Positions 2,453 through 57,201 of a stretch of DNA of 64,000 nucleotides are shown here, piece by piece. The translations under genes were made by a program, and so were the position numbers. The notes below the pieces were generated by a model, which did not search any database, had not been told where the DNA came from, and saw only the letters and a program-made list of their open reading frames with translations. Origin of the DNA: Bacteroidales bacterium (GTDB lineage: Bacteria; Bacteroidota; Bacteroidia; Bacteroidales; JAADJA01); contig JAWKKL010000002.1 in the NCBI GenBank assembly GCA_041393275.1, forward strand, positions 13,817 to 77,816. The letters run 5' to 3'. Within the stretch, counting starts at the first letter, position 1; every line of letters starts with the position of its first letter.

Positions 2453-2483
2453 TTTTGTTTAATTCAAATAGTTTAAACAACTG

Positions 2484-2765: not shown

Positions 2766-2771
2766 AACCTA

Positions 2772-3596: not shown

Positions 3597-3601
3597 TTAT
3601 A

Positions 3602-3892: not shown

Positions 3893-3904
3893 TTTTCAGT
3901 ATGT

Positions 3905-5157: not shown

Positions 5158-5201
5158 GTATTTATCGTTTTATCGTGTACTCAAAAATATTCAACTTACA
5201 A

Positions 5202-5507
5202 TTACACCTTAATTTCTACCTCAACACCACTCGGAAGCTCAAGCTTCATAAGGGCATCAATAGTTTTTGTTGTGGAGCTGTATATGTCGAGCAACCGTTT
5301 GTAAGAGCACAATTGAAATTGTTCGCGCGATTTTTTATTCACAAAAGTTGAACGGTTTACGGTAAAAATCCTTTTGTTTGTCGGTAAAGGAATCGGACCA
5401 CTAACTACAGCACCGGAGGCCTTAATTGTTTTAACGATCTTTTCGGCTGATTTATCAACCAGGTTATGATCGTATGACTTGAGTTTTATTCGTATTCTCT
5501 GACTCAC
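5202..5507 (-). CDS. rpsJ: 30S ribosomal protein S10
   Basis: Intact 101-aa ORF starting [14 protein letters not shown], with GPIPLPT. Confidence 0.95.
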
Positions 5508-5522
5508 TTTAAATAAATTTAT

Positions 5523-7628: not shown

Positions 7629-7662
7629 GAATTTCGTATTCTTTATTCTATAGTATTATATA

Positions 7663-8130
7663 TTAAAATCTAAAATGAGAGAACGCTTTGTTAGCTTCTG
7701 CCATTCTGTGAGTATCTTCTTTTCTTTTAAACGCATTTCCTTCATCTTTAACCGCGGCCAGAATTTCGCCGGCAAGTTTTTGGGCCATTGATTTTTCGTG
7801 ACGTTTACGCGAAAAGCCAATAAGGTTTTTCATCCCGATTGACATTTTGCGGCTGGGCCTGATCTCTGATGGTATCTGGAAAGTTGCTCCTCCAATACGG
7901 CGGCTTCTAACTTCAACTGCCGGAGTAACATTTGCCAATCCTTTTTTCCAAACTTCTACCGGGTCTTCACCTGATTTCTCAGCAACGATATCCATGGCAT
8001 CATAAAATATATTGTATGCAATGCTTTTTTTGCCCTGATACATAAGGTTATTTACGAATTTAGTAACCAATGTATCATTGAACTTTGGGTCGGGAAGTAT
8101 GATCCGTTTTTTTGGCTTCGATTTCCTCAT
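7663..8130 (-). CDS. rpsG: 30S ribosomal protein S7
   Basis: Intact 155-aa ORF with [16 protein letters not shown] and a C-terminal AFSHFRF. Confidence 0.95.
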
Positions 8131-8162
8131 TTTATCGTATAATTAATTCCTTAATATCGTTA

Positions 8163-8537
8163 TTATTTCTTTGGTCTTTTGGTTCCATATTTTGAACGTC
8201 TTTGGGTTCTGCCCTCAACACCGGAAGTATCCAATGCGCCTCTGATAATATGGTATCTTACGCCGGGAAGGTCTTTAACCCTGCCACCCCTGATCAATAC
8301 GATAGAGTGCTCCTGGAGATTGTGGCCTTCGCCCGGAATATAAGCATTCACCTCTTTTTGGTTTGTCAACCTTACCCTTGCAACCTTACGCATTGCTGAA
8401 TTAGGCTTCTTTGGGGTTGTGGTGTAAACCCTAACGCAAACACCCCTGCGCTGCGGACATGAATCCAGTGCCGGGGATTTACTTTTGTCAGTAAGTTTTT
8501 TTCTACCTTTTCTAACTAATTGTTGTATTGTAGGCAT
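8163..8537 (-). CDS. rpsL: 30S ribosomal protein S12
   Basis: Intact 124-aa ORF starting [12 protein letters not shown], with [16 protein letters not shown]. Confidence 0.97.
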
Positions 8538-25908: not shown

Positions 25909-26684
25909 CTATCCAAAAATCCCTTTTACCGCCCCGCCATCAACACTTATTGTCTGTCCGGTAATATACCCTGAATGTTCAGATAATAACCAGGCTGCCA
26001 GCATCCCGAATGTTGATGTATCGCCCATATGGCCAACCCTAATTTGATTTTCATATTTCTTTTTTGCCTCTTCGAAGGTTATATTTTCGACTTGGCTGCG
26101 TTTCGTGAACAGACGCTGGGCAGCCGGTGTATCGTGGAAACCGGGGGCAAGGATATTTAATGTGATCCCTTCGCGTGCGATCTCTTGTGAAAGTGTTTTT
26201 ACAAAACCCACCACAGCCAGCCGCAATGAATTGCTCAACACCAGGTTTTCAACAGGCTGTTTAACCGATTCGCTTTCGATATAGACAAACCGGCCGTAGC
26301 GTTGCGCCCGGAAAACGGGTAATAATTTTTTTGTAAAATTCACTTTCCATCGTACAATGGTTTGATAGGCATTGTCCCAGTCTTCCATTTGTGTTTCGAG
26401 GAATGATTTGGCCGGTGGCCCGCCGGCATTGATCAATACGCCACTTAAAAACCTGCTGTTTATTTTTTCCAGGATTTCATTCTGAACGGAATCAGATGTA
26501 ATATCCCCTGAAATAATTTCGACCTGATCCGGAAAGTCTTTGAAAGTTGGTGGAGTTTATCTATATCCCTGGCGACTGCAATAATTTTAGCCCCATCATT
26601 CAATAATCCGAGGGCAACGCCTTTTCCTAAACCGCTGGTTGCGCCGCATACCACAAATAATTTTCCTTTTATCTTTAAATCCAT
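25909..26684 (-). CDS. SDR-family oxidoreductase (single frame break as sequenced)
   Basis: The N-terminus VVCGATSGLGKG (TGxxxGxG) lies in ORF 26460..26684. At about 26530 (CCGG where CCCGG would restore the frame) the protein continues as TFPDQVEIISGDITSD...LINAGGPPAK into ORF 25909..26436. Confidence 0.8.
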
Positions 26685-26724
26685 AGTTTATTAATCTTTA
26701 ATTTTTACTCAAAACTTTTCATTC

Positions 26725-26757
26725 ATCGGCTAAGCGGTTTAAATCCGCTAAGCCGAT
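26725..26757. other. Strong intergenic hairpin (13-bp stem, one A-A mismatch, 7-nt loop)
   Basis: ATCGGCTAAGCGG (26725-26737), TTTAAAT, CCGCTAAGCCGAT (26745-26757), between the radical SAM and SDR genes. No adjacent U-run on either strand. Confidence 0.6.
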
Positions 26758-29977: not shown

Positions 29978-30069
29978 GGCAAAGAATTAATTACTAACCC
30001 TTTGTTTACCAACTGGCGCGAGTCTGAGATAAAGCCTCAGGGCTAATTTTGCGCCCTAAAATATAACGC

Positions 30070-31574
30070 ATGCAAGAAACCATCCTGATCCTGATTTTGG
30101 CTCACAATATACCCAATTGATCGCCCGCCGTGAGAATTAAATGTTTATTGCGAGATCCATCCTTTCAATGATTTTCCTGAAATCAACGATCATATTAAAG
30201 GGGTTATCCTGTCAGGGAGCCCGTTTTCGGTAAACGATGCGGATGCACCGGTTCCCAACCTTGATAAAATACGTAAAATCCCCTTGTTAGGGGTTTGCCA
30301 GGGCCCAGTTTCTGGGCAAAGGATTCAGGGGGTAAAGTTGAGCCTTCTTCCACCAGGGAATATGGCCGGGCCAATTTATCCTTCATCCATTTCCGAATAT
30401 TTTGATGGCATGCCAGGTTGCATAGGTGCGGATGTCGCATGGCGATAACATACTTCTGAGGTGCTGTTTTTGAAATCATTACCGAAAATTCACGATGAAA
30501 TTGCAGGCTACAAAATTAAAAATGAAAAGACCTTTGGCATACAGTTTCATCCCGAAGTGTATCATACCACAGAAGGAAAAACGTCAGCTTCATAATTTTG
30601 TGATAAACATTTGCGGGTGCACACAGGACTGGACCCTTGAATCGTTTATCGAAACCACCATTGATGCCCTGAAGAAAAAACTTAAAACGACAAAGTGGTG
30701 CTGGGCCTTCGGGCGGGGTTGACTCTTCTGTTACAGCTGTTTTGCTTAACAAAGCCATTGGCGATAACTTAACATGCATCTTTGTGGATAACGGCCTGTT
30801 AAGGAAATATGAATTTGAATCGGTTATTGATTCTTATAAGCATATGGGGTTAAATGTTATTGGAGTGGATGTTAACAGTTTTATAAAAACCTCAAAGGGG
30901 CGGTTGATCCGGAAAAGAAGAGAAAATCATCGGGAATACTTTCATCGAAGTGTTTGATGCGGAAGCCCATAAAATACAGGATGTAAAATGGCTCGCACAA
31001 GGTACTATTTATCCTGATGTGATCGAGTCAAAATCGGTGAAAGGGCCAAGCGCTACCATTAAATCGCATCACAATGTTGGCGGCCTGCCCGACTTTATGA
31101 AACTTAAAGTAGTGGAACCACTTAATTCCTTATTTAAAGACGAAGTACGAAAATTGGATTAACCCTGAAAATGGACAAAGTCTGATAGGTAGGCATCCTT
31201 TTTCCTGGCCCGGATTAGGGGATTCGAATACTGGGAGATGTAACGCCTGAAAGTTAGGGTTCTTCAGGATGCTGACTATATTTTTATTGAAGGCCTGAAA
31301 AAGTTTGGACTTTAATAGGATAAAGTATGGCAGGCGGGGGTTATGTTATTGCCGGTATGATCAGGCGCCATGGGCGATGAACGGACTTATGAAAATTGAG
31401 AGTTGCTCCTGCGGGCTGTCGGTTCCACTGATGGCAATGACCGACTGGTCGCACTGTTCCCATGATTTCCTCGCTAAAGTATCGAATGAGATCATCATCA
31501 ACCAGGTTAAGGGTGTCAACCGGGTTGGTTATGATATTAGCTCAAAACCACCGGCTACGATTGAGTGGGAATAA
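30070..31574 (+). pseudogene. guaA: GMP synthase (glutamine-hydrolysing), multiply frame-broken as sequenced
   Basis: Stitching frames gives MQETILILDFGSQYTQLIARR.., [73 protein letters not shown] and [12 protein letters not shown]. By manual translation there are at least six frame changes. Confidence 0.85.
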
Positions 31575-31620
31575 TAAAATAAGATAAATGTTGTTATCAA
31601 TCATGATATTTTGAATTAGC

Positions 31621-33965
31621 ATGAGAAACTCCCTGGATTTTTATTTTTTCATTTTACTGTCACAGTTGGCATTGTCAGTTCAGGCGCAACATGGCCAGCC
31701 AGCAACCAGGTCAGAGATCATTGAAGAAAAACCACATGGAAAGATTTTTATATCCATTTTGTAAAAAAAGGAGAAACGTTATTTACCATTGCCCGTGCAT
31801 ATGGAATTACGGTGGATGACATATTTAAAACTAACCTCCATCGGCAACGGAAGGTATTTATGAAGGAAAAATTTTAAAATACCTGTTAAAAGTAAAAACC
31901 GGCCAGGCTGTTGAAAAGAAGGAAAAAAATGAAAAAGATTTTTTCACCATATCGTGCAAAAAACAGGAAACCTTGTATGGCATTTCAAAGAAATATGGAA
32001 TTGGTGAGCAATTGACAAAATTAAAGCCATAAATCCGGGGTTAAGTGATAATATTAGTGGAAGGGCTAACTTTGAAAATTCCGGTTCGGCAGGAATATGA
32101 AGATTTATTGCGCCCGAATGGGATGGCTTAAACAAACAACATACTGTAAATAAAAAGGTGAAACACTTTATGGTATAGCCCGCCAGTACAATGTTACTAT
32201 TGGTGAAATAAAATGTAAACCCGGACTATCTGATAATCTTAATGTCGGTGAAAAGGTCGCTATTCCTAACCAGGAAACAGGAATGGACAGGAGGGGTAAC
32301 GGCAATTGCCATTGATGAAGATGGAAATATTGTTGAATTGCCCAAACAGAAAAAACATACAGTTGTCAAAGGCGAAACCTTATACAGTATAGCCCGCGAT
32401 AATGCCACCAGTGTTGATAGCCTGAAAAAATACAACCCCTGGTTAAGCTCGTACCTGAGCGTCGGGCAGGTAATTATCTTACCTCCATTCCAAAATACAA
32501 ATGAATATATTGTTCACAAACCTGACGCAAAAAAATCGCTTGAGGAAATCGCCAATCTTTATGACGTGGATTACAACAAGGTTGCTGAATTAAATCCACA
32601 TATTGCAAAAAGCCAGTAAGCCGTGGCTTAACACAACAAAACATTACCTGTTGAAATAAAGGATGATGTTATCGAATCTGAAAATTCAATCCCCGAAGAA
32701 AAATAACGGTATTGGGTTGCGAAGATCAGGAAACCAATCATTTGGAAACCGCAATATTACTTAATGCTTCCTCTTTTTCCTTGAACAGCTCGATAGCATC
32801 AATGCAAAAGAGAAAGTGGATTTTGGCACCCTTTACCAAACTCTCCTCTTTCGTTTCTTTCGATTTTTATGGAGGTTTTAAATTGGCTGTTGATTCAATG
32901 CAAGCACTGGGGATGAACATTAATTTGTTTGTATACGATGTGGATAACGACCCGGAAAAGACCACACATGTACTTAATTCATATCCGAACTCGGATCAAT
33001 GGACTTAATTGTCGGGCCGCTTTATCAGAATATTGAACAAATGGCACGCATTTTGCAAAAGAGTATCAAATACCAATCATTAATCCGCTTTCAAACCGAG
33101 AAGAAGTCATTTATGGAAACCCTTATGTTTTTAAATTAATCCCTTCCGAAAGCCATCAGGTTGAAATTTTAACCGATTACATCCTTCGCACATACCCTGA
33201 TAAAAACATTGTTTTTAATAAAGTACAATAAGTATAAATACCAAAACGAAATTTCATTTATCCGAAACACACTAAATAGTGAAAGGCCCGTAAAGGTAAA
33301 TATATCAAATAAAAATATTTGTATCATTAGCAAGGCAAAATAATAAATCAACCCTGCTAACTGAAAATAAATTGCTGAATGCACGACTTAAATGAAACCA
33401 AACGACAGTGCATCGTTTACCAATCTTGTTCAATAGAAGTAATTTATGTTTCCGACAGCGTAAACGGATTAAAAATGAGTTTATCGAAAGTGAGGGATAA
33501 TGTGTGTCATTGCCATTAGCGATATTGTTTTTTCTGAAAGAAGTGTTATCGAAGCTGAATAAACTTAGCCTTCAACATAACATTGTCCTTTTTGGGCTTC
33601 CGTTGTGGAATGATTACATCGATTTGGAAACCTCTCAATTGCTAAACCTGAATTTTCACTTCTTTTCGACATCTCTGGTTAATTATAAAAGTGAAAAGAC
33701 AAAACACTGGATAAAAAAATTCAGGGAAAATTATAAAACCGAACCTTCGGTCAATAATTATGCGTTTGATGGGTTTGATGCCGGATGGTATTTTCTGAAC
33801 GGATTATACAGGTTTGGCCCTGATTTTATCAACTGCCTTGAATATATGGATTTCCGGCCCATGCATACCAGGTACAAATTTATTCAGTCGCAAGGCAATG
33901 GCTACCAAAACAGTTTTTGGAACATAGGGAAGTACGAATCATATAATGTAATTAAAGTAAATTGA
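31621..33965 (+). pseudogene. Multi-LysM protein with a C-terminal periplasmic-binding-protein (type 1)-like domain, multiply frame-broken
   Basis: Signal peptide (MRNSLDFYFFILLSQLALSVQA) followed by repeated LysM units (VKKGETLFTIARAYGITVDDI, TLYGISKKYGI, TLYGIARQYNVTIGEI, HTVVKGETLYSIARDNATSVDSLKKYNPWL, SLEEIANLYDVDYNKVAELNP). The PBP-like tail is intact in 33504..33965. Confidence 0.7.
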
Positions 33966-34181: not shown

Positions 34182-35150
34182 ATGCTCAGCAGAAGGCACC
34201 TCAGAATTAAAGCACTCCAGCTATTGTATGCTTTTATTCAATCGAATAACGACAATCTTGTAACGGGAGAGAAAGACTTATTGAAAAGCCTCAATAAAAT
34301 CTATGAACTGTTTATATACCAGTTTTCGCTCCTGATTGAGATAACTGAATTTGCATATAAAAGGTCAGAAGAAAACAAGCAGAAATATTTTCCAACCGAA
34401 GAAGACCTTCATCCAAATACCCGCTTTATTAATAACCGCATTATCAAAATGATTTCCAACAATCGCGATTACCAGCGCTATTATGATGTTTACAAAATAA
34501 ACTGGGCCGAAGAAGAAGAAATGATCAGGAAATTATACAAAGGGATCATTGCAAGCGAAGAATACAAAGCATACATGGATGCCAAAATTGCAACACTAAA
34601 TGCTGACAAGGAAATTTTGATCAAAATCATAAAAAAACACCTTTCCCGCTCGGAGCTGTTGCAATCGTTTTACGAAGAAAAAAACATTCACTGGTCCGAT
34701 GACTTTCATACGGCAAACCTTCTGCTTATAAAAGCAATCAAAGGACTAAAAGAGGGTTTTGGTGAAAATGTGAAAAACTACCTACACTGCTTAAAAACGA
34801 TTTGTCGATGATCCCGATGAAGACATTGAATTCAAAAATCTTATTCAGGAAACGATAATCAACAACCAGCAATATCTTGATTTAATTGAAAATGCTGTGC
34901 GCAAAACTGGGAAATGGAACGCATTGCTATTATAGATAATATCCTTGCGTTGAAAATGGCCATTGTCGAGCTGCTTTGAATTTCCATCAGTCCTCGACTG
35001 TTAGCATTGAACGAATACATCGAACTGGCAAAGCTCTACAGTACACCCGCAAGTAAAATATTCGTTAACGGTATTCTTGATAAACCCATTGTAGATTTAA
35101 AAGCTGACAATAAAATAAAAAAATTGGCCGGCCTGCCTGAAAGTTATTAA
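34182..35150 (+). pseudogene. nusB: Transcription antitermination factor NusB (long Bacteroidota form), 3' third frame-broken
   Basis: MLSRRHLRIKALQLLYAF is intact to about 34790. Shifted frames then read DDPDEDIEFKNLIQETI...ERIAIIDNILALKMAIVELL...INEYIELAKLYSTPASKIFVNGILDK. The exact stop is uncertain. Confidence 0.8.
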
Positions 35151-35243: not shown

Positions 35244-35903
35244 ATGATGAAAGCTAAGGTATATTTTTATGGATTAACCGTTGTTTTTTTAAGTTTTATG
35301 TTTGTCCAATGCGACCCGCCTCTAAAAAAGACGGTAAACGGAACAAGCGAAATCAGAACAAACAAAGCCAGCCATTCCCGAGAAAAGCAAACAAAGGGAA
35401 GAACCGGTAATCACCAAAGATGACAGGGGGAATATCATTGAACGGCAGTCGTATTCGTACAAAAAATCGGATAACAGCATTCGATCGAAAGAAAGTTATT
35501 ATTATGAATACGATGATAGCAACAATCTGATAAAAGATGTTAAAGAATCATATGACCTGATGGCTCTCGAAATATAAAAATATTAATTATCATACATATA
35601 ATAAAAAAATGAATTGGTCAAAAACCATTTTTGAATCGTACGACGACCACAATAACTCAGCGAAAAGCCCACAACGAATTTATTTATAATGAAAAGGGGC
35701 ATAAAATAAAAGAACTAAACTTTTATGAAAATGGCTCATTACGTGGAGAGATCATCCTCGACCCTGATGTAAACGGTGCTCTTCGTTCGGAAGAATTCAT
35801 CAATTATAATCCTGACGGATCTAAAAAAGACCACAAAAAATATTATTACAACCAATACGGCCTTGAGAAAACGGTGGATTTGATGGAGAAAGGAAAAGGG
35901 TAA
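35244..35903 (+). pseudogene. Small lipoprotein with Tyr/Asn-rich repeats, frame-broken, function unknown
   Basis: MMKAKVYFYGLTVVFLSFMFVQC lipobox, with fragments in three frames ending in ORF 35631..35903. Confidence 0.45.
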
Positions 35904-38962: not shown

Positions 38963-39816
38963 AGATACTGGAAACTTACCGGGATGCCCTGCAAAGTATT
39001 CCCGGCTTTATCCCTACGGATAAAAAAGTCCAGGCAATCAATACTTTGCTTGAGGTCAATTTCGATATCCTTGATGTTGGGAGTTTCGTTTCTGAAAAAT
39101 TTGTTCCCCAGTTTAAGGATATGGATGCGGTACTGAATCAAATCCAGAAAGGGAACTCAATAACTGAAATATTTGTTTTGACAGCTACACCAGAAGGTGC
39201 AAATAAAGCAGCACAACATAAGATCATTGATATTATAGGTTATCCCTTTTCTACCTCTCCCACTTTTCTAAACAAGAATATAAACAGAAATTTTGATGAA
39301 GCATGGGTTGATATTGTAAAGATTCAGGATATTTGTCAAAAATACAATAAAGACCTAATGCTTTACCTCGCTATGGCTTTTGGCAATCCGTATGGCGATC
39401 CGGTGGAAATTAAGGATATTTTTTCCTGGGTTCAAAAATTTTCTTCAATTGGTATCACTTATATCAGCCTGTCTGATATTATTGGTGTTGCCTCTCCCCA
39501 ATTTATTGCCGATGCATATCAGACTTTTACTACAAATTTCCCTGATATTGAATTTGGGCTTCATTTACATACCAAACCAAATGACTGGGAACAAAAAATC
39601 GAAGCCGCCTACACGAACGGATGCACTATTTTCGACGGGGTGATCTCTGGCCTGGGTGGATGCCCGATGACGGGTTACGAAATGCTTGGGAATTTGCCAA
39701 CCGCAAAACTGGTTGATTTTTTCCTGAAAAAAGGGATCCCTTTGCAACCTGGAAAGGACAAATTTGAAAAAGCCCTCACAATGTCAAACGATTATATTCA
39801 GCCTGGTAAGCAATAA
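38935..39816 (+). CDS. HMG-CoA-lyase-like (HMGL/DRE-TIM) protein
   Basis: From the ATG at 38935: MVQKNHRKVKILETYRDALQS.., LHLHTKPN, and DGVISGLGGCP. The upstream part of tracked ORF 38518.. overlaps the membrane gene in another frame. Confidence 0.75.
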   Translation: MVQKNHRKVKILETYRDALQSIPGFIPTDKKVQAINTLLEVNFDILDVGSFVSEKFVPQFKDMDAVLNQIQKGNSITEIFVLTATPEGANKAAQHKIIDIIGYPFSTSPTFLNKNINRNFDEAWVDIVKIQDICQKYNKDLMLYLAMAFGNPYGDPVEIKDIFSWVQKFSSIGITYISLSDIIGVASPQFIADAYQTFTTNFPDIEFGLHLHTKPNDWEQKIEAAYTNGCTIFDGVISGLGGCPMTGYEMLGNLPTAKLVDFFLKKGIPLQPGKDKFEKALTMSNDYIQPGKQ

Positions 39817-40181
39817 TTGGCAACTGGGTTTTTAATCCTAAAAAAACCATTAGACTTTTTAGGGGTAAATTTATATCCATTTTAAACAATGCAAAAACTT
39901 ATTGTTTTTCAGCAACTTACCCCCTCCCCCGACAAACACCCAAGCCAACTATCTTCAGAAAATAAGTTTGGATATCCCTGCGTATTACCTTTATATGAAA
40001 CGTAGGGTAAAAATTGCTCAATGGATTAAAGGATCAGTAACGCATGTTGTTCCCATTTAATTTGGATGATGGATATATTAATTTTACCAAAGGCTTCCCT
40101 TATGTAAAATAGTAATAATTCCATTTTTGAATAAGTGTAATTAATATAAGAAAATAAAAGCTAACCTGAAATAGCAAAGAG

Positions 40182-41602
40182 ATGAAAAAAATTTTAATTG
40201 TTATAATAGCCATTTTTTTTACAGGAAACAGCCCGCCAAATACCAAAAGCCAATACACCATTCCGGTGGGCAATGTACCGCCTGCACATCGGATATTGGA
40301 CAATGACATGGGCCTTGATGTTATAACCGGTCATAGTGTTGGATGGGGATATACCAATAAATCTATATCGGTTATGGAAAATATAAACAATGGTGTGTTT
40401 TTTTAGTAACAGATACATCCAAGTCTTTGTGGGAACCAAAAGAATATATTTACCATACAGGTAAACAACGACACATTTCCCGACCTGGCGGTTTTTTATT
40501 CTTGATTTCCACCTCTGCTACACAAAGGTATATAAGGGTATTTTATAATGAACAGGGTGAGTTTAACAATTTTAGCGATTTCAGCCTCGAAAGCGACGCC
40601 ACATTTTCAGGGATCAATCACGGTAAAGTTAATGATGATGATTATGACGATATTGTGGTCATATCAAACAATGGGCATTTTTGGGGTATCCTTTACAATG
40701 ATGGGAATAGTGGGTTTACTTCGCCAGAATATTTTAATCTTGACGGACCTCCATCTGATATTGCCTGTAGTGATTTAAATAAAGACGGACGTGACGATGT
40801 TGTTGTTGTTGGAAACAAGTTAAACGTATACTACAGTTATGACACAAGCTTGTAAAGGATCTCAATTGGGTTCCAGCAATTTTTAGTTCAATTGGCAGAC
40901 ATGGATATGGATAATGACATGGACCTGGTTTGTTTAAGTGGCTATTTTTCAACAACAATTGCCACCATCATTGAAAACATTGGGGATGGCAATTTCTACA
41001 CACATGAGCCTTTCCCATACAATCCCTACTGCTGGCGATTTCTTGTATCTGACCTTAACAACGATTCATTGCCTGACATCATTTCATCAAGTGTCAACAA
41101 TGGTGTATATATTTTGTACAATGAAGGAAATTACCAGCTTTCCGGCCCAGTTTTTATACCGGTGCCATTGGTAGGTTACGATTTTGTGAATGCCCATTGT
41201 GCCGACCTCGACAACAATGGGTTCAATGATCTAATTATAACACAAACCAATGCCCATTTCATCAACTTGTTATTTAATGACGGCAATGGCAACTTTGTTG
41301 AAGATCCTCTCACCTATTCTAAAGAAAGTATACATGAAAGAGAAATTTATCTGAATTGTAGTCCAAATCCATTTTCAGGTACAACAAAAATTTGGTACAA
41401 GCTTGAAAGTGAATCATCTGTTCAATTGAATGTTTACAATTTTACCGGACAATTGATCAAATCATATGATGAAGGGTCAAAAATGAAAGGAAACCATTTT
41501 GTTGAATTTGATGCAACAGGGCTAAAGAGTGGGATTTATTTCTATTCGATCGGTATAAATGGACAAATATCGGATTCAAAGAAGATGACTATTTTAAAGT
41601 AG
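40182..41602 (+). pseudogene. FG-GAP/VCBS-repeat protein with T9SS C-terminal sorting domain, frame-broken
   Basis: Has a signal peptide and repeated Ca-loop motifs (DLNKDGRDDVVVVG, DMDNDMDLV, DLNNDSLPDII, DLDNNGFNDLII). The C-terminus is SPNPFSGTTKIWY...GIYFYSI. Frame breaks lie near 40400-40520 and 40855-40890. Confidence 0.7.
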
Positions 41603-41654
41603 CCCCAAATTAATTTATGTAAATCATTATTTAGGTTTTAAATTTCTAAAAAGC

Positions 41655-41684
41655 TGTCCCTGTAATACGGGGCATTTTTTATTT
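41655..41684 (+). terminator. Candidate intrinsic terminator
   Basis: Stem UGUCCC / GGGGCA (one G-U pair) with an 8-nt loop, followed by UUUUUUAUUU. Confidence 0.55.
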
Positions 41685-42018
41685 CAATGGCCACTTTATT
41701 GCATTTATTTGCCATGATTGACATTGAGGTAAAACTGGAATATTGGGAAATTTCAAACAATTATTTTTATCACTCTTACAATATTCTATCATTCCAGAAT
41801 GGGAAGGCTGAAGTAAGCTCGGTTTATAAATCATTTACCCTATTGCATTTATCATAATTAGGTTAATTTATTTCGCTAAAATAGTGGTCTATTTATAAAA
41901 CATCTACAAAACTACATTATTCAATCCTTCCAATTTTACTGTATTTACTTAATTAACAGTCCATAGTTTATAATCCTTCTAAATTTCTAATCCTCATTGC
42001 TAGTCAAATAAATAAATA

Positions 42019-42026
42019 TATTTTTG
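42019..42026 (+). promoter_or_regulatory. Candidate -7 promoter box (TATTTTTG) of the hox operon
   Basis: TAnnTTTG match 52 nt upstream of the hoxF ATG, with a TTG 17 nt further upstream. Confidence 0.4.
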
Positions 42027-42029
42027 TGC

Positions 42030-42045
42030 TGTTAATTAATTAACA
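42030..42045. promoter_or_regulatory. Perfect 16-bp palindrome TGTTAATTAATTAACA (operator candidate)
   Basis: Self-complementary, located between the -7 box and the hoxF start. A related half-site TTAATTAACAG lies at 41949-41959. Confidence 0.4.
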
Positions 42046-42077
42046 ATTGAATTTAATCATTTATAAAATAACATAAT

Positions 42078-43861
42078 ATGAGTTCACAAGTCCAAAGTAT
42101 TGTTGAGAAATACAGTAAAGATGCAACCCGTCTTATGGATATCCTTATCGATATAAAAGATGAAAATGGGTGTGTTGGCAGTGACGAAATTGCCGAAATA
42201 GCTGATCAACTGAATATTTCGCATGTTGATGTTGAACAAACACTTTCATTTTATCACTTTTTCAATAAAAAATCACGCGGGAAATACACCATCTATTTAA
42301 ACGATAGCCTTGTGGCCAACATGATGGGCAGGGATGAAATTGCAGATGCCTTTGAAAAAGCCACAAAAACAAAATTTGGTTCGGTATCGAATGATGGAAT
42401 GTTTGGCCTCTTCAACACATCATGTATTGGTATGAACGACCAGGAGCCGGCAGCCATCATAAATGGGGTTGTATTTCCTAAAATTACGACCTACAGGGTA
42501 AGGGAACTGATCAAAGAGTTCAGGACAGGCAAAACAGCCCAGGATATGATCAACAGTTTTGGCGGTGGCCAAAATCAATCCGACCTCATCCGTTCCATGG
42601 TAACAAACAATCTTAACCGCAGGGGAAAAGTTATTTTCGCCGACTACCATGCCGGGGATATGTTGAAAAAATTGCCTTCGATGAAACCTGTGGAAGTCAT
42701 CGAAGAAGTGAAAAACTCAAACCTCCGTGGCCGCGGTGGTGCAGGTTTCCCAACCGGATTAAAATGGGATTTTTGCACAAAGTCTCCAGGCAACGAAAGG
42801 TATTTGCTTTGCAATGCAGATGAAGGAGAACCCGGGACATTTAAAGACAGGGTTATCCTCACAGAAATTCCTTACTTGTTGTTTGAAGGAATGATCGCCG
42901 CCGGTTATGCCATCAGCGCAAAAGAAGGAATATTATACCTCCGAATGGAATATAAATACCTGGAAAACACCTTGATGCCGTAATAGATAACTTCCAGGAA
43001 AACGGTTGGCTTGGTAAAATGCCTGTGGAATTGAAGGATTCAATTATGATATAAGAATTCAGTTTGAGCCGGTGCTTTATGTATGCGGTGAAGAATCGGC
43101 CCTGATTGAATCATATGAGGGAAAACGTGGTGAACCAAGAAACCGCCCACCTTTTCCTGTTCAGGTTGGATACCTCGACAAACCAACTGTGGAGTTAATA
43201 ATGTTGAAACTTTACCGACAATGTTAAAAATTTGATGAATGGTGCCGAATGGTATAACCGTCGGGGACCAAAAGAAACATCAGGTACAAAACTATTAAGC
43301 ATTCTCAGGAGATGAAATTTCCGGGTGTTTTTGAAATCGAATGGGGCATGACGGTTCGTGGAATGTCGAATGTCGTGGAGCCTCCATGACACAAAAGCGG
43401 TTCAAATAGGAGGCCCATCAGGACGTTTAATTGCAGAAAATGAATTCGGACTTTGAAATTTGTTATGAAGACCTGCCAACCGGTGGAGCCATGATCGTTT
43501 TGACAAATCTCGCAACATCCTTGATATCGTTAAAAACTTCACCGACTTTTTCATTGATGAATTTTGTGGTTCATGTGCACTTTGCCGCTATTCGACTGTT
43601 ATCTTACGTAATAAATACAGAAGATACTGAATGGGCGTAGTAAGCGATATTGAAGAAATGATCCATTGCGGAAAACAAATGAAAAATGCCAACCGTTGCG
43701 GCTTGGACAAACGGCTGCAAACCCCATTCTTACATATTGAAAATTTCCAGGGCGACTATGAAGCCAAAATTGAAAAAGGAAAAGTGTTTGATACAAAATT
43801 CAACCTTGATGAAGCCATTCAGGAATCATGTCGTGTTGTCGGCAGGTTCCCGCAGGCATAA
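42078..43861 (+). pseudogene. hoxF: NAD(H)-binding diaphorase subunit HoxF (NuoE-like + NuoF-like fusion); 3' half multiply frame-broken
   Basis: Intact to 42983 ([30 protein letters not shown]). Stitched frames then read [52 protein letters not shown], and NRCGL...FPQA with the stop at 43859-43861. Confidence 0.85.
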
Positions 43862-43989
43862 TTTATACAACAATTAGAAATTTTTTTCAAGTAATATTTT
43901 TGGCAAAACTATTTAAATCAGGAAACGGCAATCACCAAATTGTTGCTGATACTGAAATAAATCATGAAAAATCAAAAATATCAACTGTT

Positions 43990-44694
43990 ATGAGTGAAAA
44001 AGTAAAATTTTCAATTGACGGTAAACAATGTACAGCAGACAAAGGCATTAACCTGGTTGAGGCCGCCAAAGAAAATGGCGTCTACATCCCTACCCTATGC
44101 CACCTTGAAGGCATTAAAGCTGCCGGCTCGTGCAGGATCTGTAACGTTAAAATTAACGGCAGGTTCATGACGGCTTGTACAACAAATGTTGCCGATGGCA
44201 TGGTCATCGAAAACGTAACACCCGAAATTCAGGAATTAAGAAAAATTATTGTTGAAACGCTTTTCGTATCTGGCAACCATTATTGCCCGGCCTGCGAAAA
44301 AAGCGGGAACTGTGAACTCCAGGCATTAGGATACAAATACCAAATGCTTGTTCCACGCTTCCCCTATGAATTTGAAGAAAAAGAAGTAGACGCCAAAGCA
44401 ACCAAATTTTATATCGACAGGAATAGGTGCATTCTTTGCAAACGTTGTGTTAGAAGTATAAAAACCAAAGACGGCAAAAGTATATTTGCCATTCTTGGAA
44501 GAGGCCATAAAGCCATGATCAATATTGACCACGAACTGGCTAATAATATGACCGACGACGAAGCGGCAACATACAATGACACATGCCCCGTGGGAAGCAT
44601 CCTGAGAAAAGAGAGAGGCTATGTCGATCCAATAGGAAGCCGGAAGTACGACAAACCTATTGGAAGCGAAATTGAACAAAGTGTAACTAACTAA
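43990..44694 (+). CDS. hoxU: Iron-sulfur diaphorase subunit HoxU (NuoG N-terminal-like)
   Basis: From MSEKVKFSIDGK: a 2Fe-2S pattern CHLEGIKAAGSCRICNV...TAC, then HYCPACEKSGNC and CILCKRCVRS...CPVG. Confidence 0.88.
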   Translation: MSEKVKFSIDGKQCTADKGINLVEAAKENGVYIPTLCHLEGIKAAGSCRICNVKINGRFMTACTTNVADGMVIENVTPEIQELRKIIVETLFVSGNHYCPACEKSGNCELQALGYKYQMLVPRFPYEFEEKEVDAKATKFYIDRNRCILCKRCVRSIKTKDGKSIFAILGRGHKAMINIDHELANNMTDDEAATYNDTCPVGSILRKERGYVDPIGSRKYDKPIGSEIEQSVTN

Positions 44695-44703
44695 TAGGAG
44701 GAA

Positions 44704-45255
44704 ATAACAACAGTAAACCAATTGTAGCTACCACATCTTTAGCCGGTTGAAGCTGGATGTCATATGTCAATCCTTGACATTGACGAAAGAATACTGGAAC
44801 TTATTGAACTGGTCGATTTTAATAAATCTCCCATTGATGATATCAAAGAATTTACCACGATGTGTGATATAGGTATCATTGAAGGAGGTCGTGCAACAGC
44901 GAAAACGTTCATGTTTTGAAAGATTTCAGGAAAAATTGTAACGGATTTCCCTTGGAGAATGTGCCATCATGGGTGACTCGGCCATGCGAAATAATATTCC
45001 TATCAGGGAGTGTTTGAGGAAGGTATTTGAACGGGCCATCCTACAAAAACGCCAATCCGGGCTGTAATTACTCCCAACAATGAGGAACTACCACCATTCT
45101 CGATAAAGTATATCCCTGTCATGAAGTTGTAAAAATTCGACTATTACCTCCCGGGCTGCCCACCGCGCCGATTTGAATTTGAATGCACTGGTTGCTCTGG
45201 TAACAGGTTATTTGAAGAAATGAAACTTCCCTACGAAGTTGTTAAATTTGATTAA
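44704..45255 (+). pseudogene. hoxY: [NiFe] hydrogenase small subunit HoxY, multiply frame-broken; start not resolved
   Basis: Stitched frames read KPIVATTSLAGC..GCHMSILDIDERILELIELVDFNKSPIDDIKEF...IIEGG, YLPGCPP and KLPYEVVKFD, with the stop at 45253-45255. No intact ATG was seen. Confidence 0.75.
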
Positions 45256-45275
45256 CTCTGGTAAAGCTTAAGAAA

Positions 45276-46727
45276 ATGGAAAAAAAGATAACAATAGAAC
45301 CTGTAACCCGAGTGGAAGGCCACGGTAAGGTTACAATTCAGATAGACAAAGAAGGCAACGTATCACAAAGCCGCCTGCATATCGTTGAGTTCAGGGGATT
45401 TGAGCGTTTTGTACAAGGCCGCCCCTACTGGGAAGCCCCCGTTTTGGTACAACGCCTTTGCGGAATTTGCCCAGTTAGCCATCACCTGGCTGCAGCTAAA
45501 GCACTTGATGTAATTGTTGGTGCGGGAACGGGAGATGGTCTTACACCCACCGGTGAAAAAATGAGAAGGCTGATGCACTACGGACAAATGTTCCAGTCAC
45601 ATGCCCTGCACTTCTTCCACCTTGTTTCTCCTGATCTTCTTTTTGGTGTGGATGGTGACCCGACAATCAGAAATGTTATTGGTGTTGCTAAAAAACATCC
45701 TGATCTTGCAGTGCAAGGTGTAATGATGCGTAAATTCGGACAGGAAGTTATTAAAGCAACTGCCGGTAAAAAAATTCACGGCACGGGCGCTATCCCTGGT
45801 GGAATTAATAAACATCTGACCCAGGCAGAAAAAGATAGTTTCCTGAACGGACCCGACCCATTGAACATTGATAAAATGATTTCATTGGCCCAGGATGCAG
45901 TTAATTTCCTGAAAGCTTATCATAAAGAAAATAAAGCATTCATTGACGGATTTGCCGCTTTCCCTTCAAGTCATTTAAGCCTTGTTAGGAAAGATGGTGC
46001 GCTTGACCTTTATCATGGTGTATTACGGGCCATTGATAAAGACGGAAACAAAATCCTTCACGATGTTGATTACCAGAACTACCTGGATTATATAAACGAA
46101 GAAGTGAGGGACTGGAGTTATATGAAATTCCCCTTCCTTACCGAATATGGTAAAAAAGAGGGTTGGTACCGGGTTGGGCCATTGGCCAGGTTAAATACCT
46201 GCGATTTTATTCCAAGTCCGATGGCACAAAAAGAATTTGAAGAATTCCGGGCTTATACCAATGGGAAACCAAACCACATGTCGATGCATATGCATTGGGC
46301 CCGTTTGATTGAGTTGCTTCACTCTGCTGAGATGATGAAAGAATTGTTGAATGATCCTGATCTGATGAAGGGAGAATTGATAACTAAAGGTGAAAAACGC
46401 AGTGAAGGTGTTGGTTTAATTGAAGCCCCGCGTGGTACGCTGTTTCATCATTACAGGATAAATGAACATGATCAGATTGCTATGGCCAACCTTATTGTAA
46501 GTACTACAAACAATAATGAACCTATGAATGTTGCTGTAAATCATGCTGCAAAACAATTCATGAATGGCCAGGAAAAAATCACCGAAGGTATGATGAATGC
46601 TGTTGAAGTGGCAATCAGGGCATACGATCCTTGTTTAAGTTGTGCAACCCACGCTGTTGGACAAATGCCGCTTGAAATGGTGTTGATCGATCAATACAAT
46701 AAAGTAATCGACCGGAAAAGAAGGTAA
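45276..46727 (+). CDS. hoxH: [NiFe] hydrogenase large subunit HoxH (group 3d-like)
   Basis: Intact 483 aa with RVEGHG, the N-terminal Ni-Fe ligand motif RLCGICPVSH, and the C-terminal DPCLSCATH. Confidence 0.93.
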   Translation: MEKKITIEPVTRVEGHGKVTIQIDKEGNVSQSRLHIVEFRGFERFVQGRPYWEAPVLVQRLCGICPVSHHLAAAKALDVIVGAGTGDGLTPTGEKMRRLMHYGQMFQSHALHFFHLVSPDLLFGVDGDPTIRNVIGVAKKHPDLAVQGVMMRKFGQEVIKATAGKKIHGTGAIPGGINKHLTQAEKDSFLNGPDPLNIDKMISLAQDAVNFLKAYHKENKAFIDGFAAFPSSHLSLVRKDGALDLYHGVLRAIDKDGNKILHDVDYQNYLDYINEEVRDWSYMKFPFLTEYGKKEGWYRVGPLARLNTCDFIPSPMAQKEFEEFRAYTNGKPNHMSMHMHWARLIELLHSAEMMKELLNDPDLMKGELITKGEKRSEGVGLIEAPRGTLFHHYRINEHDQIAMANLIVSTTNNNEPMNVAVNHAAKQFMNGQEKITEGMMNAVEVAIRAYDPCLSCATHAVGQMPLEMVLIDQYNKVIDRKRR

Positions 46728-46733
46728 ACATTC

Positions 46734-47222
46734 GTGTCAAGTTATAAAATTCTAATCTATGGATATGGGAACCCGGGTCGCCAGGATGACGGTCTGGGAA
46801 ATTCCTTTGTTAATCTATTTGAGAAATGGATTAAAGAAGAAAACATGCATGGATTTGAATTTGACAGTAATTATCAATTAAACATAGAAGATGCAGATGC
46901 CATCGCTGGAAAAGACCTGGTAATTTTTGTGGATGCTTCCACGGAAGAAATCGAAGACTTTATACTAACACCGGTAGATGCGGACACCAATGTGGCATTT
47001 ACTTCGCATGCTGCGTCTCCTGGTTATATTGTTAGTTTATGCAAGGATATTTATAATAAAATTCCCCCAACCTATCTTTTACATATAAAAGGATACGAAT
47101 GGGCATTTAAGGAAGGGTTATCAGATAAAGCAAAAAAAAACCTTGAGCTTGCTTTTAGGCATATGAAGGATATTTGCCTGGAACCAAAAAAATTAATTGA
47201 CCGTTTCGAGAATTTCTTATAA
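46734..47222 (+). CDS. hoxW: Hydrogenase maturation endopeptidase
   Basis: 162 aa with GYGNPGRQDDGLG, a later FVDAS...H pattern, and a GTG start 7 nt after hoxH. Confidence 0.85.
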   Translation: MSSYKILIYGYGNPGRQDDGLGNSFVNLFEKWIKEENMHGFEFDSNYQLNIEDADAIAGKDLVIFVDASTEEIEDFILTPVDADTNVAFTSHAASPGYIVSLCKDIYNKIPPTYLLHIKGYEWAFKEGLSDKAKKNLELAFRHMKDICLEPKKLIDRFENFL

Positions 47223-47262
47223 AAGAAAATAATTTAATCACAATCACATAAAATTAAAAAAC

Positions 47263-48240
47263 ATGGACCTATCAACAGAATACATGGGATTAAAACTAAA
47301 AAATCCCATCATCGTGAGCAGTTCAAAACTTACAGGTGATATAAATAACATAAAAAAATGTGCTGATTTTGGTGCGGGTGCCATTGTTCTGAAGTCATTA
47401 TTTGAAGAGCAATTAATCGCCGATTCAAATGCTTTGATGGATCAGGACATGAAATATTTCTGGTTTCCTGAGGCCATCGAACATATCAACAAACATTCAA
47501 AGGAATACGGTGTTAAACAAACCCTCGAACTTATAAAAGGGGCTAAAGCATATACTGATATTCCAATTATTGCCAGTATAAATTGTGTTTCATCGCATGA
47601 ATGGCCACAATTCGCAAAACAACTTGAAGATGCCGGAGCAGATGGGATTGAACTGAACATTGCTATTTTCCCTTTTGATAAATACATGGCTTGTGGCGAA
47701 ATCTGTGATCAGTATGTGGAAATTGTAAAAAAAGTTAAAGAATTCGTTACAATTCCTATTGCTGTAAAAATGGGCAACTATTTTACAAACCTCGTTCAAA
47801 TGACACACAGGTTAGAAGAAGCCGGAGCGAATGGACTTGTACTTTTTAACCGCTACTACCGTCCTGATATTGACATTGAAAAAGAGGCCATTGTCAGGGA
47901 TAACATTTTAAGTGCACCACAAGAAGTAACAAAATCACTACGCTGGGTAGCATTGCTCTCACCACAATTGAATTGTGATATTGCTGCTGCTACCGGAATC
48001 CATGATTATAACGGGGTGGTGAAACAACTACTGGCAGGCGCCGAAGCCACACAAATTTGTTCTACCCTTTTTAATAATGGGCTAAGTTATATTGATACTA
48101 TTTTGTTCGATTTACAAAAATGGATGCAAAAGCATAATTATAAATCAGTTGCTGAGTTTAAAGGAAAAGTAGCAAACAAAGAAGGAAGTACTCAGAAATT
48201 TGAGCGGATGCAGTTTCTTAGAAAGAAATTTAGCCAATGA
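47263..48240 (+). CDS. Dihydroorotate-dehydrogenase-like FMN TIM-barrel protein (not a canonical PyrD)
   Basis: 325 aa starting MGLKLKNPIIVSSS, with GAGAIVLKS, ASIN and GADGIELNIAIFP. The usual ELN(L/I)SCPN or SSPN catalytic Cys/Ser position reads AIFP. It lies 40 nt after hoxW and is followed by a terminator. Confidence 0.75.
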   Translation: MDLSTEYMGLKLKNPIIVSSSKLTGDINNIKKCADFGAGAIVLKSLFEEQLIADSNALMDQDMKYFWFPEAIEHINKHSKEYGVKQTLELIKGAKAYTDIPIIASINCVSSHEWPQFAKQLEDAGADGIELNIAIFPFDKYMACGEICDQYVEIVKKVKEFVTIPIAVKMGNYFTNLVQMTHRLEEAGANGLVLFNRYYRPDIDIEKEAIVRDNILSAPQEVTKSLRWVALLSPQLNCDIAAATGIHDYNGVVKQLLAGAEATQICSTLFNNGLSYIDTILFDLQKWMQKHNYKSVAEFKGKVANKEGSTQKFERMQFLRKKFSQ

Positions 48241-48255
48241 AAAAATAGTTTGCTG

Positions 48256-48283
48256 AAACCCGGTCCAATGGCCGGGTTTTTTT
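48256..48283 (+). terminator. Intrinsic terminator closing the hox-DHOD-like unit
   Basis: AAACCCGG (48256-48263) pairs with CCGGGUUU (48272-48279), followed by a U-run ending at 48283. Confidence 0.75.
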
Positions 48284-48664: not shown

Positions 48665-49552
48665 ATGAGAGTTTTATTTAATAAGAAATTCCTTAACCAT
48701 AATATTGACAGCCTCGCGGAAGGACATTACCGCATTGCAAATTTTCCAGGGTTTTACGAAGATGAAAACGCCGACGGGGAAAGATTCATGAGTCTTATTC
48801 ACCCCCAATCATATATTGATTCCATCAAAGAAGCCTGTTTCAACGGCGATATGTTAGCCGAAGTTACCCTCACCCCCGCGAGTTGGGAAGCTGCAAAATC
48901 AGCTGTTGGGCTTACTGTCATGGCAAGTTTGCAGGGCGACTTTGCTGCAGTTCGGCCTCCGGGCCATCATGCAAAAGCCGATTGTGCCTCAGGTTTTTGT
49001 TTCTTCAACAATATAGCTATTGCCACCCAAAACCTTGTCAATCGAGGCAAAAAGGTTATGATCATTGATATTGATGCACATCATGGCGATGGGACACAAG
49101 CTATTTTTTATTCTTCAGGCAATGTTTTTTATTCCTCCGTTCATCAGGCATTTTCGTTTCCATTTACAGGCAATGCCAGTGAAACAGGCGAAGGTGAAGG
49201 CAAAGGATATACGTTAAATATTCCCATAATGCCGGGAAGTAAAGACGAACATTTTTTAAAAGCCCTTGATACAATTATTTCCGCCGGCCATCTATTTAAT
49301 CCAGATGTTGTAGGTATTTCTGCTGGTTTCGACGCATATGAAAATGACCGGATGTTAGACTTAAAAGTTACTCAAAAAGGATTTTATGAATGCGGATTTA
49401 GGTTGAGAAGGGCCTTTAATAATATTTTTGCCGTTCTTGAGGGGGGTTATCACTTCGAAATAAAGGAATGCATGGAAGCCTTTATCAGTGGTATTAATGT
49501 TGGTTCACGTCCAATAAAAAATTCCTTCGACCACGAAATGTCGATTGGATAA
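48665..49552 (+). CDS. Histone-deacetylase-family (acetoin utilisation/acetylpolyamine amidohydrolase-like) protein
   Basis: Has RPPGHHAKADCASGFCFFNN and DIDAHHGDGTQ motifs. Confidence 0.88.
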   Translation: MRVLFNKKFLNHNIDSLAEGHYRIANFPGFYEDENADGERFMSLIHPQSYIDSIKEACFNGDMLAEVTLTPASWEAAKSAVGLTVMASLQGDFAAVRPPGHHAKADCASGFCFFNNIAIATQNLVNRGKKVMIIDIDAHHGDGTQAIFYSSGNVFYSSVHQAFSFPFTGNASETGEGEGKGYTLNIPIMPGSKDEHFLKALDTIISAGHLFNPDVVGISAGFDAYENDRMLDLKVTQKGFYECGFRLRRAFNNIFAVLEGGYHFEIKECMEAFISGINVGSRPIKNSFDHEMSIG

Positions 49553-55508: not shown

Positions 55509-56281
55509 TGTCCGCAAATAGGAGGCTCCATTGATATCAATGATACAACCCGTCATATATTCGGTGCCTTCAGCAGCCAGAAATAAAACAGCATTAGCAA
55601 TTTCTTCCGGCTTTGCTACCCTGTTTAATGGGCTTTGACTTTTTAACTCAGCCGAGCGTTCGCCATGCACCGCAAAAGCGGCCATATCCGTATCCACAAA
55701 CCCGGGGGCTATGGTATAAACAAAAATATTATGGCTGGCAAAGGCTTTCGCAAATGATTGGCTAAAGGAATTCAATCCGGCTTTGCTGGCACCGTAGGCC
55801 GGGGCATTGGGTTCGCCTCGAAAAGCTCCCCGCGAAGAAATGTTGATGATTTTACAGCCACCCTTGTTTTTCATTTCTTTGGCAACTAAAAACGATAAAT
55901 TGGCAACTCCCGTCAGGTTTGTTTCTATGGTTTTTTTCCAGCTTGCTTGCCATTTTTTGTAATCCAGGTCAAGGACTTCAAACTCTTCATAAACACCGGC
56001 ATTGTTGACCAGAATATCAATCTTTCCATAGGAATTGATACACTGGCTTCGACAAGCCAACATGTTCAGGATTTGAAATATCTGCCTGAAAAATCGAATG
56101 ATCACGAGAAGGGAGCCCTTTACCACAAATTCAGCGCTGGACACATATCATTTACATAATGAACGATGACTTTTGCCCCTGCTTCGGCAAACATAATCGC
56201 TGTAGCCCTACCAATTCCCCGGGAAGAACCTGTTACAAGGACAACCTTATCCTTGAAATTGTATTTTGTTGATTGTTTCAT
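55506..56281 (-). pseudogene. SDR-family oxidoreductase (FabG-like), frame-broken in its 5' third
   Basis: The ATG at 56281 gives MKQSTKYNFKDKVVLVTGSSRGIGRATAIMFAEAGAKVIVHY. Frames change between about 56000 and 56150 (HSIFQADISNPEHV appears in another frame). After that the sequence is intact: GKIDILVNNAG...YGASKAG... Confidence 0.8.
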
Positions 56282-56289
56282 ACGATCTT

Positions 56290-57201
56290 TTATTCAATAA
56301 TCTGAACGCCGGTATTAGAAGTAAAGGTCTTTATCACCTTTACAAAGTTCGGATTGTCAGAAAACTGTTTTTCCATAAATGCAGCAATCTCTTCCTGTTT
56401 GTCCTGTGTGCAAAAAGCAATAACTGACGAACCTCCACCACTGATCGTGCAACCATAAGCCCCCATTTCAATAGCCTGATTTTTAAGCCCCAATATCCTG
56501 AATGACTGCTCCCCTGACAGGTTCGTGAATGTAATCAACACTGATGGCTTTTCCGAACTCAACCATATCGTTTGCATAAATGGCGTGAATTACACGCGAA
56601 CAACGAGCCATTTGAGATTTTAGTTTTTCCTGCCCGATTTCGTAAGTAATGAATCCCCGTGTTGTCCGCTGACTCTTTTTTATGGCTGCCAGGACAACAG
56701 GGACATTTGGCAGGTTGAGTTTTAAAACATCAATTGGGTTGTAATCTTTCACCAGAACAAATCCACCCAAAATGGCGGCAGCCACATTATCAGCATGGGG
56801 TGACCCGCCTGAAGCGACCTCCCCCTCCGGGCAAAATCAATTAATTCGTTATTGGAAAGGCCAAGTGAAAAAAGTTTATCCAGACCAAAAATTGTGGCTC
56901 CGGCTGATGCCCCGGTAGTTCCCATTCCACCACCCGAACTCATATTTTTTATTATGTTTATATGAATGCCGGTGTTTAATTTTTTTGCATTTAATAAAGC
57001 CATGGCGGCCAAACCCGCTGTATTATCATTGGGATTAGTAGGAATGTTTTGAACATTATGATCAATCTGGATTGTAATTTGCCCAGAATCATTCAGGCTT
57101 AATTCAATTATATCATAGGGTTTTCTAAGGCAAGGCAAAAATATCGTATCCGGGACCTAAGGTTGGCACTGGTTGCAGGGCTTAATCCTGATGCTGTTCA
57201 T
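56290..57201 (-). pseudogene. thrB: Homoserine kinase (GHMP family), multiply frame-broken
   Basis: Three tracked ORF pieces plus a start MNSIRIK... are present. The GHMP motif SSGGGMGTTGASAGA, HADNV-region remnants, and C-terminal GAYGCTISGGGSSV are visible. Confidence 0.75.

Follow-up and report, generated by a model that had tools for sequence, protein, structure and literature searches.

A SH-type, group 3d-like [NiFe]-hydrogenase operon of a Bacteroidales metagenome-assembled genome and the likely technical origin of the frameshifts within it

Introduction

A 64,000-nt stretch of DNA from contig JAWKKL010000002.1 of a Bacteroidales bacterium (the whole stretch is called the window here) carries a cluster of genes for an NAD-linked [NiFe]-hydrogenase, in which two genes, hoxF and hoxY, are interrupted by frameshifts in the deposited sequence. 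The locus raises a question in two parts: which kind of hydrogenase these genes encode, and whether the organism has lost it. An initial annotation of the window had assigned the cluster to the soluble hydrogenase (SH) type. Our analysis supports that assignment and suggests that the frameshifts are likely a property of the deposited consensus sequence rather than of the organism.

Organization and class of the operon

Six co-oriented genes on the plus strand, hoxF, hoxU, hoxY, hoxH, hoxW and a gene for a dihydroorotate-dehydrogenase-like (DHOD-like) flavoprotein, occupy positions 42078–48240 of the window, with intergenic gaps of ~6–130 nt (Table 1). The compact same-strand hoxF-U-Y-H-W cluster of the initial annotation was found where it had been placed, each assignment is backed by Pfam or NCBIfam matches, and all of the motif strings cited in that annotation were recovered from the sequence. 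The locus had been drawn to position 48283, which is 43 nt beyond the stop codon of the DHOD-like gene. A separate hoxE gene was not found, and there was no further NuoE-like open reading frame (ORF) in the cluster. Relatives carry the operon intact (loci L001–L005), with HoxF of 597, HoxU of 235, HoxY of 183, HoxH of 483, HoxW of 161 and the DHOD-like protein of 323 aa.

The class of the enzyme is indicated most clearly by HoxH. This protein has no indels relative to its relatives and contains both of the CxxC motifs that hold the Ni-Fe ligands (QRLCGICPVSH and DPCLSCATH). It matched NiFeSe_Hases in Pfam, and the Pfam family PF27537 (“HoxH”) is precomputed on every close HoxH homologue, including a 100% identical entry (P0001). 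The best solved relative of HoxH was 5XF9_D (E = 5e-158, 530 bits), followed at lower scores by HydL of Acetomicrobium mobile (7T2R_D, 477 bits), MvhA of group 3c (405 bits), and enzymes of groups 3a/3b (~100 bits) and group 1 (~70–110 bits). HoxF and HoxY likewise had chains of 5XF9 (A and C, respectively) as their best solved relatives. Overall, these data support the view that the operon is of the SH-type, group 3d-like HoxFUYH(W) kind that lacks HoxE, and the initial identification as group 3d/SH is upheld.

The maturation protease HoxW, recognized initially by its GNPGRQDDGLG motif, was located, as were the remnants of HoxY. HoxW scored 50.8 bits against TIGR00072 (cut-off 47.45) and is named “hydrogenase maturation protease” by NCBI. 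HoxH extends 24 residues past the His of DPCLSCATH, the residue at which chain 5XF9_D stops. HoxW would process HoxH at its C-terminus, and the 24-residue extension would be the expected substrate.

HoxH and HoxY would form the H2-activating module. The diaphorase module would consist of HoxU, with Fe-S clusters for electron relay, and of HoxF, which would bear FMN, an NAD(H) site and one [4Fe-4S] cluster. No cluster is predicted for the NuoE-like domain at the N-terminus of HoxF, and the complex would lack HoxE. The enzyme would be a bidirectional [NiFe]-hydrogenase of the ordinary kind, soluble and linked to NAD(H), for which we infer activity with NAD(H) and H2.

HoxF, HoxU and HoxY

In hoxF only codons 1–301 (42078–42983) remain as an intact ORF, and the remainder is readable after correction of the frame. 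The 301-aa ORF matched Pfam PF01257 (2Fe-2S_thioredx, residues 5–148) and PF01512 (Complex1_51K), the latter covering the first part of the Nuo51 FMN domain. Of the HoxF motifs quoted in the initial annotation, one sits beyond this ORF, in another reading frame, and the others are within it. In the damaged part, the GAGAY motif reads EPVLY and the ESCGSCAPCR motif is altered too. A frameshift-aware alignment of the HoxF protein of L001 to the window hoxF gave 520 of 584 residues identical with 12 frameshifts, and the gene is 1784 nt long compared to 1794 nt in L001. When the intact L001 orthologue was used as the query, the best match in the PDB was 5XF9_A (E = 2e-115), with residues 36–593 of L001 HoxF aligned to residues 30–574 of that chain.

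The NuoE-like domain of the window HoxF retains one of the four cluster cysteines, the same number as HoxF of 5XF9. The first NuoE cysteine motif has no Cys in either protein (5XF9_A reads IHFVDHVVDHHAG) and the second has a single Cys in each (TSCIGMNDQ in the window HoxF, TACAGLSDQ in 5XF9_A). The initial description of an SH-type enzyme with no HoxE and with a degenerate NuoE domain, having lost three of its four cysteines, agrees well with the HoxF of 5XF9.

These features also bear on whether the enzyme could instead be an electron-bifurcating NiFe hydrogenase of the A. mobile HydABCSL type, using NAD and ferredoxin together. The chains of 7T2R rank second among the solved relatives, both for HoxH (at the score given above) and for HoxY (150.9 bits), as such an enzyme might lead one to expect. 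However, bifurcating enzymes depend on additional clusters, which are carried by HydB and HydC. The alignment of the orthologous HoxF to 5XF9_A runs end to end, and the protein stops after its NADH_4Fe-4S domain: its precomputed Pfam domains are limited to 2Fe-2S_thioredx, Complex1_51K, SLBB and NADH_4Fe-4S, and a C-terminal Fer4 domain is absent. The NuoE-like domain is without three of the four cluster cysteines, no separate HydC/HoxE gene is present, and HoxU is just 234 aa long. We therefore consider a bifurcating enzyme extremely unlikely, and a HydABCSL-type assignment was rejected based on the domain content of the orthologous HoxF, that is, its having no C-terminal ferredoxin domain.

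HoxU has the Pfam domains Fer2_4, NADH-G_4Fe-4S_3 and Fer4_Nqo3. Its best match was the NCBIfam HoxU model NF005745, at 187 bits and under the cut-off of that model (333). The protein has no net frameshift and is identical to that of L001 at 214 of 234 residues. Near its 3' end, hoxU has two indels that compensate each other (+1/-1, at 44565/44577), and 3 nt are deleted at 44653. Damage in hoxY is far more extensive: there are nine frameshifts (44749–45211), the ATG is lost, and an in-frame stop replaces one Cys of the LAGCFGCH cluster motif. In the orthologous loci HoxY is an intact protein of 183 aa, and that of L001 best matches 5XF9_C (E = 8.5e-56), with its residues 5–183 aligned to residues 15–189 of the chain.

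Distribution of damage in the window

To describe the damage, frameshifts were counted in frameshift-aware alignments of the window against intact orthologues, and conserved sites were taken to be those first and second positions of codons at which six relatives do not vary. Two error-like patches hold the frameshifts of the hydrogenase genes, one within hoxF and one that runs from the 3' end of hoxU across the whole of hoxY (Table 1). On both sides of its patch hoxF is clean, over 888 nt before it and 125 nt after it. The difference is abrupt, as none of 405 conserved sites is changed in the 5' part of hoxF compared to 34 of 416 in the adjoining ~770-nt patch. In hoxH, hoxU and hoxW there is almost no change at conserved sites.

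The damage is not specific to the hydrogenase: guaA is broken in the same manner, and so are at least seven further genes of the window with no relation to the operon. The gene guaA (~30031–31572) and the adjacent gene for a LysM-like protein form one continuous ~4-kb stretch of dense small indels (30031–33952). A short-chain dehydrogenase gene, damaged at 26532–26725, has the N-terminal 78 profile positions out of frame. The apparent frame switches at 56140–56830 involve two neighbouring genes and are widely spaced, sparser than in the other patches; they were read from a three-frame translation without an orthologue. In comparison, no frameshifts were found in HoxU, HoxH, HoxW, the DHOD-like protein, or the Band7, GT446 (glycosyltransferase-like) and HMGL-like proteins, the genes of which are interleaved with broken ones. 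In the ribosomal str/S10 region (867–8537, minus strand) the genes for S12, S7, EF-G, L3, L4, L2, L22, S3 and L16 are all intact ORFs, evidence that the window has long undamaged stretches. A further two ORFs, both very long (1029 and 1789 aa), are also unbroken.

The separate dense patches are alike in having ~1–2 frameshifts per 100 nt. They consist of small indels of both signs, several of them in compensating +1/-1 pairs a few bases apart, and have no large deletions. Gene lengths are preserved despite the frameshifts, and HoxF and HoxY are 89–91% identical to their L001 orthologues once their frames are corrected. Transitions and transversions (35/28 in the patches, 18/16 in the clean parts) are uninformative, and the comparison is weakened by the fact that many “substitutions” in the patches are short out-of-frame stretches between compensating indels. 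Homopolymer-linked error or slippage as the origin of the indels was tested and found no support, as 27% of frameshifts lie near homopolymer runs compared to 26% of random positions, which is no enrichment.

Origin of the damaged patches

We consider it likely that the frameshifts in hoxF, hoxY and the other genes reflect a patchy, low-quality consensus of the deposited contig, a metagenome-assembled genome (MAG), and are thus technical in origin. This is because the patches ignore gene borders, with edges in the interior of hoxF and a crossing from hoxU into hoxY, and neutral decay should be uniform along a gene. The similar density of the patches in unrelated genes points to a single process rather than to genes dying at different times, and that guaA and other unrelated genes are equally broken makes a problem of sequence quality the most likely cause. 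Noisy long reads, or thinly covered and unpolished stretches, would be a possible source of such patches in an otherwise accurate assembly. The organism itself would then hold an intact, working operon like those of its relatives.

Several points weigh against this explanation. The case for a technical origin is inferred from the deposited consensus alone, and the lesions are present in the NCBI record, in which MEZ5082007.1 is a 301-aa fragment of HoxF. The absence of homopolymer bias also agrees poorly with the consensus errors that are typical of nanopore, 454 or IonTorrent data. An intact copy from the same species was sought, and the HoxH cluster contained only the NCBI sequence itself; the closest relatives, with HoxH 95–96% identical, are only ~82–84% identical at the DNA level. 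In addition, ~10 of the ~60 genes of the window are affected, as would also be possible in a decaying genome.

The last of these points leads to the main alternative, that the frameshifts are real and that the lineage is in gene decay, its NAD-linked hydrogenase having been inactivated via hoxF and hoxY, and guaA, the LysM-like gene, the thrB-like gene and others being pseudogenes. The deposited sequence does bear the lesions, and broken genes occur in the window alongside intact ribosomal protein genes, fusA (EF-G) and the two very long ORFs. Pseudogene-rich genomes show intact and broken genes interleaved in this manner. However, a dead gene should decay evenly, yet within hoxF the changes at conserved sites are confined to the patch, and the second patch runs from hoxU into hoxY. 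The products of hoxH, hoxU and hoxW would serve no purpose if HoxY and HoxF were missing, but these three genes are free of indels (apart from the 3' end of hoxU described above) and strongly conserved. Real decay is also difficult to reconcile with the lack of large deletions and the preserved gene lengths, and guaA is normally indispensable. The indels are without homopolymer bias, and natural slippage indels are expected to be enriched near homopolymers. The ratio of indels to substitutions in natural bacterial mutation spectra is, moreover, far lower than that seen here. For these reasons we give decay of the lineage a small, though appreciable, chance of being the explanation.

A related possibility is that the dense patches are real in another sense, as segments with sharp limits in which local hypermutation or decay has inactivated hoxF, hoxY, guaA and others, with their neighbours under strong selection. 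If true, this would imply an unusual localized mutational process or a very recent mosaic decay of the genome; we regard it as improbable. It might also be proposed that the contig is a chimeric consensus of at least two co-occurring strains, in which collapsed haplotypes gave rise to local mosaics with spurious indels, so that the sequence of the patches would belong to none of the strains. Patchy damage with sharp edges independent of gene borders is in keeping with this, and many closely related Bacteroidales populations in metagenomes carry the operon. Collapse of strains from short reads, however, usually yields substitutions or breaks and not ~1.5 small indels per 100 nt, and nothing indicates the presence of two haplotypes. 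A chimera is very unlikely by our estimate and is really a sub-case of an assembly artefact.

An artefact of the consensus sequence has a practical implication, in that patches of this kind in a contig mimic pseudogenes. Claims that the hydrogenase, guaA or other genes have been lost from this MAG would need to be checked against the reads first.

Table 1. Positions of the hydrogenase operon genes, damaged patches and other features in the window
Feature	Positions	Strand	Description
hoxF	42078–43861	+	NuoE-like domain without cluster, fused to NuoF-like NAD(H)/FMN/[4Fe-4S] diaphorase subunit
hoxU	43990–44694	+	NuoG-N-terminal-like [2Fe-2S] and [4Fe-4S] electron-transfer subunit, 234 aa
hoxY remnant	44709–45255	+	hydrogenase small subunit; 183 aa in relatives
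hoxH	45276–46727	+	[NiFe] large subunit, 483 aa, intact
hoxW	46734–47222	+	hydrogenase maturation endopeptidase, 162 aa, intact
DHOD-like flavoprotein gene	47263–48240	+	dihydroorotate-dehydrogenase-like, 325 aa, 40 nt 3' of hoxW
Patch 1, error-like, in hoxF	42965–43736	+	12 frameshifting indels of 1–5 nt, clustered base changes
Patch 2, error-like	44565–45211	+	begins in hoxU 3' end, spans all of hoxY
Short-chain dehydrogenase	26532–26725 (span)		2 frameshifts, 1 stop
guaA	30064–31437 (span)		17 frameshifts, 3 stops
LysM-like gene, 792 aa	31743–33952 (span)		21 frameshifts, 0 stops
321-aa gene	34772–34992 (span)		5 frameshifts, 0 stops
212-aa gene	35395–35658 (span)		3 frameshifts, 0 stops
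FG-GAP/T9SS-tail gene	~40400–40890 (broken)		split into three ORFs
thrB-like GHMP kinase and second short-chain dehydrogenase	~56140–56830	-	three apparent frame switches
Histone-deacetylase-family gene	48665–49552	+	Pfam PF00850, E = 3.7e-69
His-rich membrane protein with HKHKHIHNDGTIHLHEHNHANDHDH loop	49950–50657	-	weak DsbD_2 match

Distribution of the operon in Bacteroidales

The initial annotation had considered a group 3d copy in a member of the Bacteroidota to be noteworthy. Our data indicate that such copies are common. An NCBI entry, MEZ5082012.1 ([quoted passage not shown]), is 100% identical to HoxH, and more than 120 HoxH protein clusters are at least 80% identical to the window protein, the named ones nearly all being from MAGs of Bacteroidales, Bacteroidota or the neighbouring FCB group. 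One scan of species-representative genomes, with the N-terminus of HoxF as the query, returned 438 related loci, and most of the best 80 were from Bacteroidales. The HydDB paper of 2016 already listed a group 3d enzyme in an isolate of Bacteroidetes, Phaeodactylibacter xiamenensis (PMC5037454). Apart from that table entry, no paper on group 3d enzymes in Bacteroidales was found in our search of the literature. A Bacteroidota copy of the group 3d operon is already known and is not unusual, and the finding has little consequence for hydrogenase biology, as operons of this kind are numerous among Bacteroidales MAGs and have been annotated there before.

The DHOD-like gene and neighbouring genes

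The DHOD-like gene that follows hoxW matched NF005741 (“dihydroorotate dehydrogenase-like protein”) at 401 bits (cut-off 303). Among loci L001–L083, a DHOD-like gene lies directly 3' of hoxW in 32 of the 60 informative loci. It lies no more than 160 nt past the end of hoxW in 15 of the 17 informative loci that are close and in 17 of the 43 that are more distant, with gaps of 21–159 nt. In Bacteroidales the operon often has a DHOD-like flavoprotein gene as its sixth member, and in the window this gene is probably cotranscribed with the hox genes. Of the “extra linked genes” noted initially, it is the one that stood up to comparison, as no other was truly conserved. A search of the literature found nothing that links a DHOD-like gene with hydrogenases. 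We hypothesize that the flavoprotein could be an undescribed functional partner of the group 3d hydrogenases of Bacteroidales, and its recurrence after hoxW provides a small lead for studies of H2 metabolism in anaerobic members of the order.

In scans for promoters and terminators, counts were not above those for shuffled sequence, and the scans served as weak support for the limits of the operon only. The first terminator-like site 3' of the DHOD-like gene was not before 48457 in the terminator scan. Downstream of the operon is a histone-deacetylase-family gene, the position of which is kept in many close relatives. Upstream, the interval 39816–42078 has ~2.2 kb that is extra relative to L001, where hoxF starts ~230 nt after the HMGL-like gene. 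The extra DNA contains the broken FG-GAP gene, which encodes a tail of the type IX secretion system (T9SS) kind, and a terminator-like hairpin at 41655–41674.

A His-rich membrane protein is encoded on the opposite strand further downstream and is a possible nickel transporter, with a role in nickel supply that its setting in relatives would favour. In L002 and L003 (12976–16611) this gene adjoins those for a TonB-dependent receptor and NikR, an arrangement that suggests a linked module for nickel uptake and its regulation in the relatives. The window has a cold-shock protein gene after that for the His-rich membrane protein, in place of those for the TonB-dependent receptor and NikR.

As reported in the initial annotation, hyp genes were not found in the window; the scan covered ~55 proteins and ORF fragments (approximately all ORFs of at least 120 aa) and ORFs of the size of HypA and HypC in part. 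The description of the source as a T9SS-bearing member of the Bacteroidota was also borne out, as five proteins of the window have a T9SS C-terminal sorting domain and NCBI names the source a Bacteroidales MAG.

Comparison with known hydrogenases

Among characterized enzymes, A. mobile NiFe-HydABCSL (7T2R/7T30) comes second among the solved relatives, for HoxH as for HoxY, and also has a NuoF-like subunit. In comparison to that enzyme, the window system has no separate cluster-bearing NuoE-like subunit and no C-terminal ferredoxin domain on its NuoF-like subunit, and its NuoG-like subunit is short. The cyanobacterial HoxEFUYH enzymes, which are also of group 3d, have the HoxFUYH core in common with the window operon, and the best match of HoxU was to NF005745. 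The differences are that the window lacks HoxE, that its NuoE-like part is a fused domain of HoxF without the [2Fe-2S] ligands, and that HoxU scored under the cut-off of its model.

The HoxFUYHI2 enzyme of Cupriavidus necator (Ralstonia eutropha) has a HoxFU diaphorase, a HoxHY module and a HoxW protease, and no HoxE. Compared with this enzyme, the window cluster differs in that no hoxI homologue was seen in it.

Among solved structures, HoxH, HoxF and HoxY are all closest to the soluble NAD+-reducing HoxFUYH of Hydrogenophilus thermoluteolus (5XF9/5XFA, group 3d). The two systems are alike in their four-subunit layout, in the fused NuoE-like domain with one of four cysteines and, judging by the intact orthologues, in a short HoxY of ~183–189 aa. 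Processing of HoxH after the His of DPCxxCxxH would be a further likeness. The alignments to the 5XF9 chains, made for HoxF and HoxY with the L001 orthologues, run end to end. The window system differs from that of H. thermoluteolus in its source, which is a MAG of Bacteroidales from an anaerobic habitat and belongs to another phylum, and in the extra DHOD-like gene that follows hoxW.

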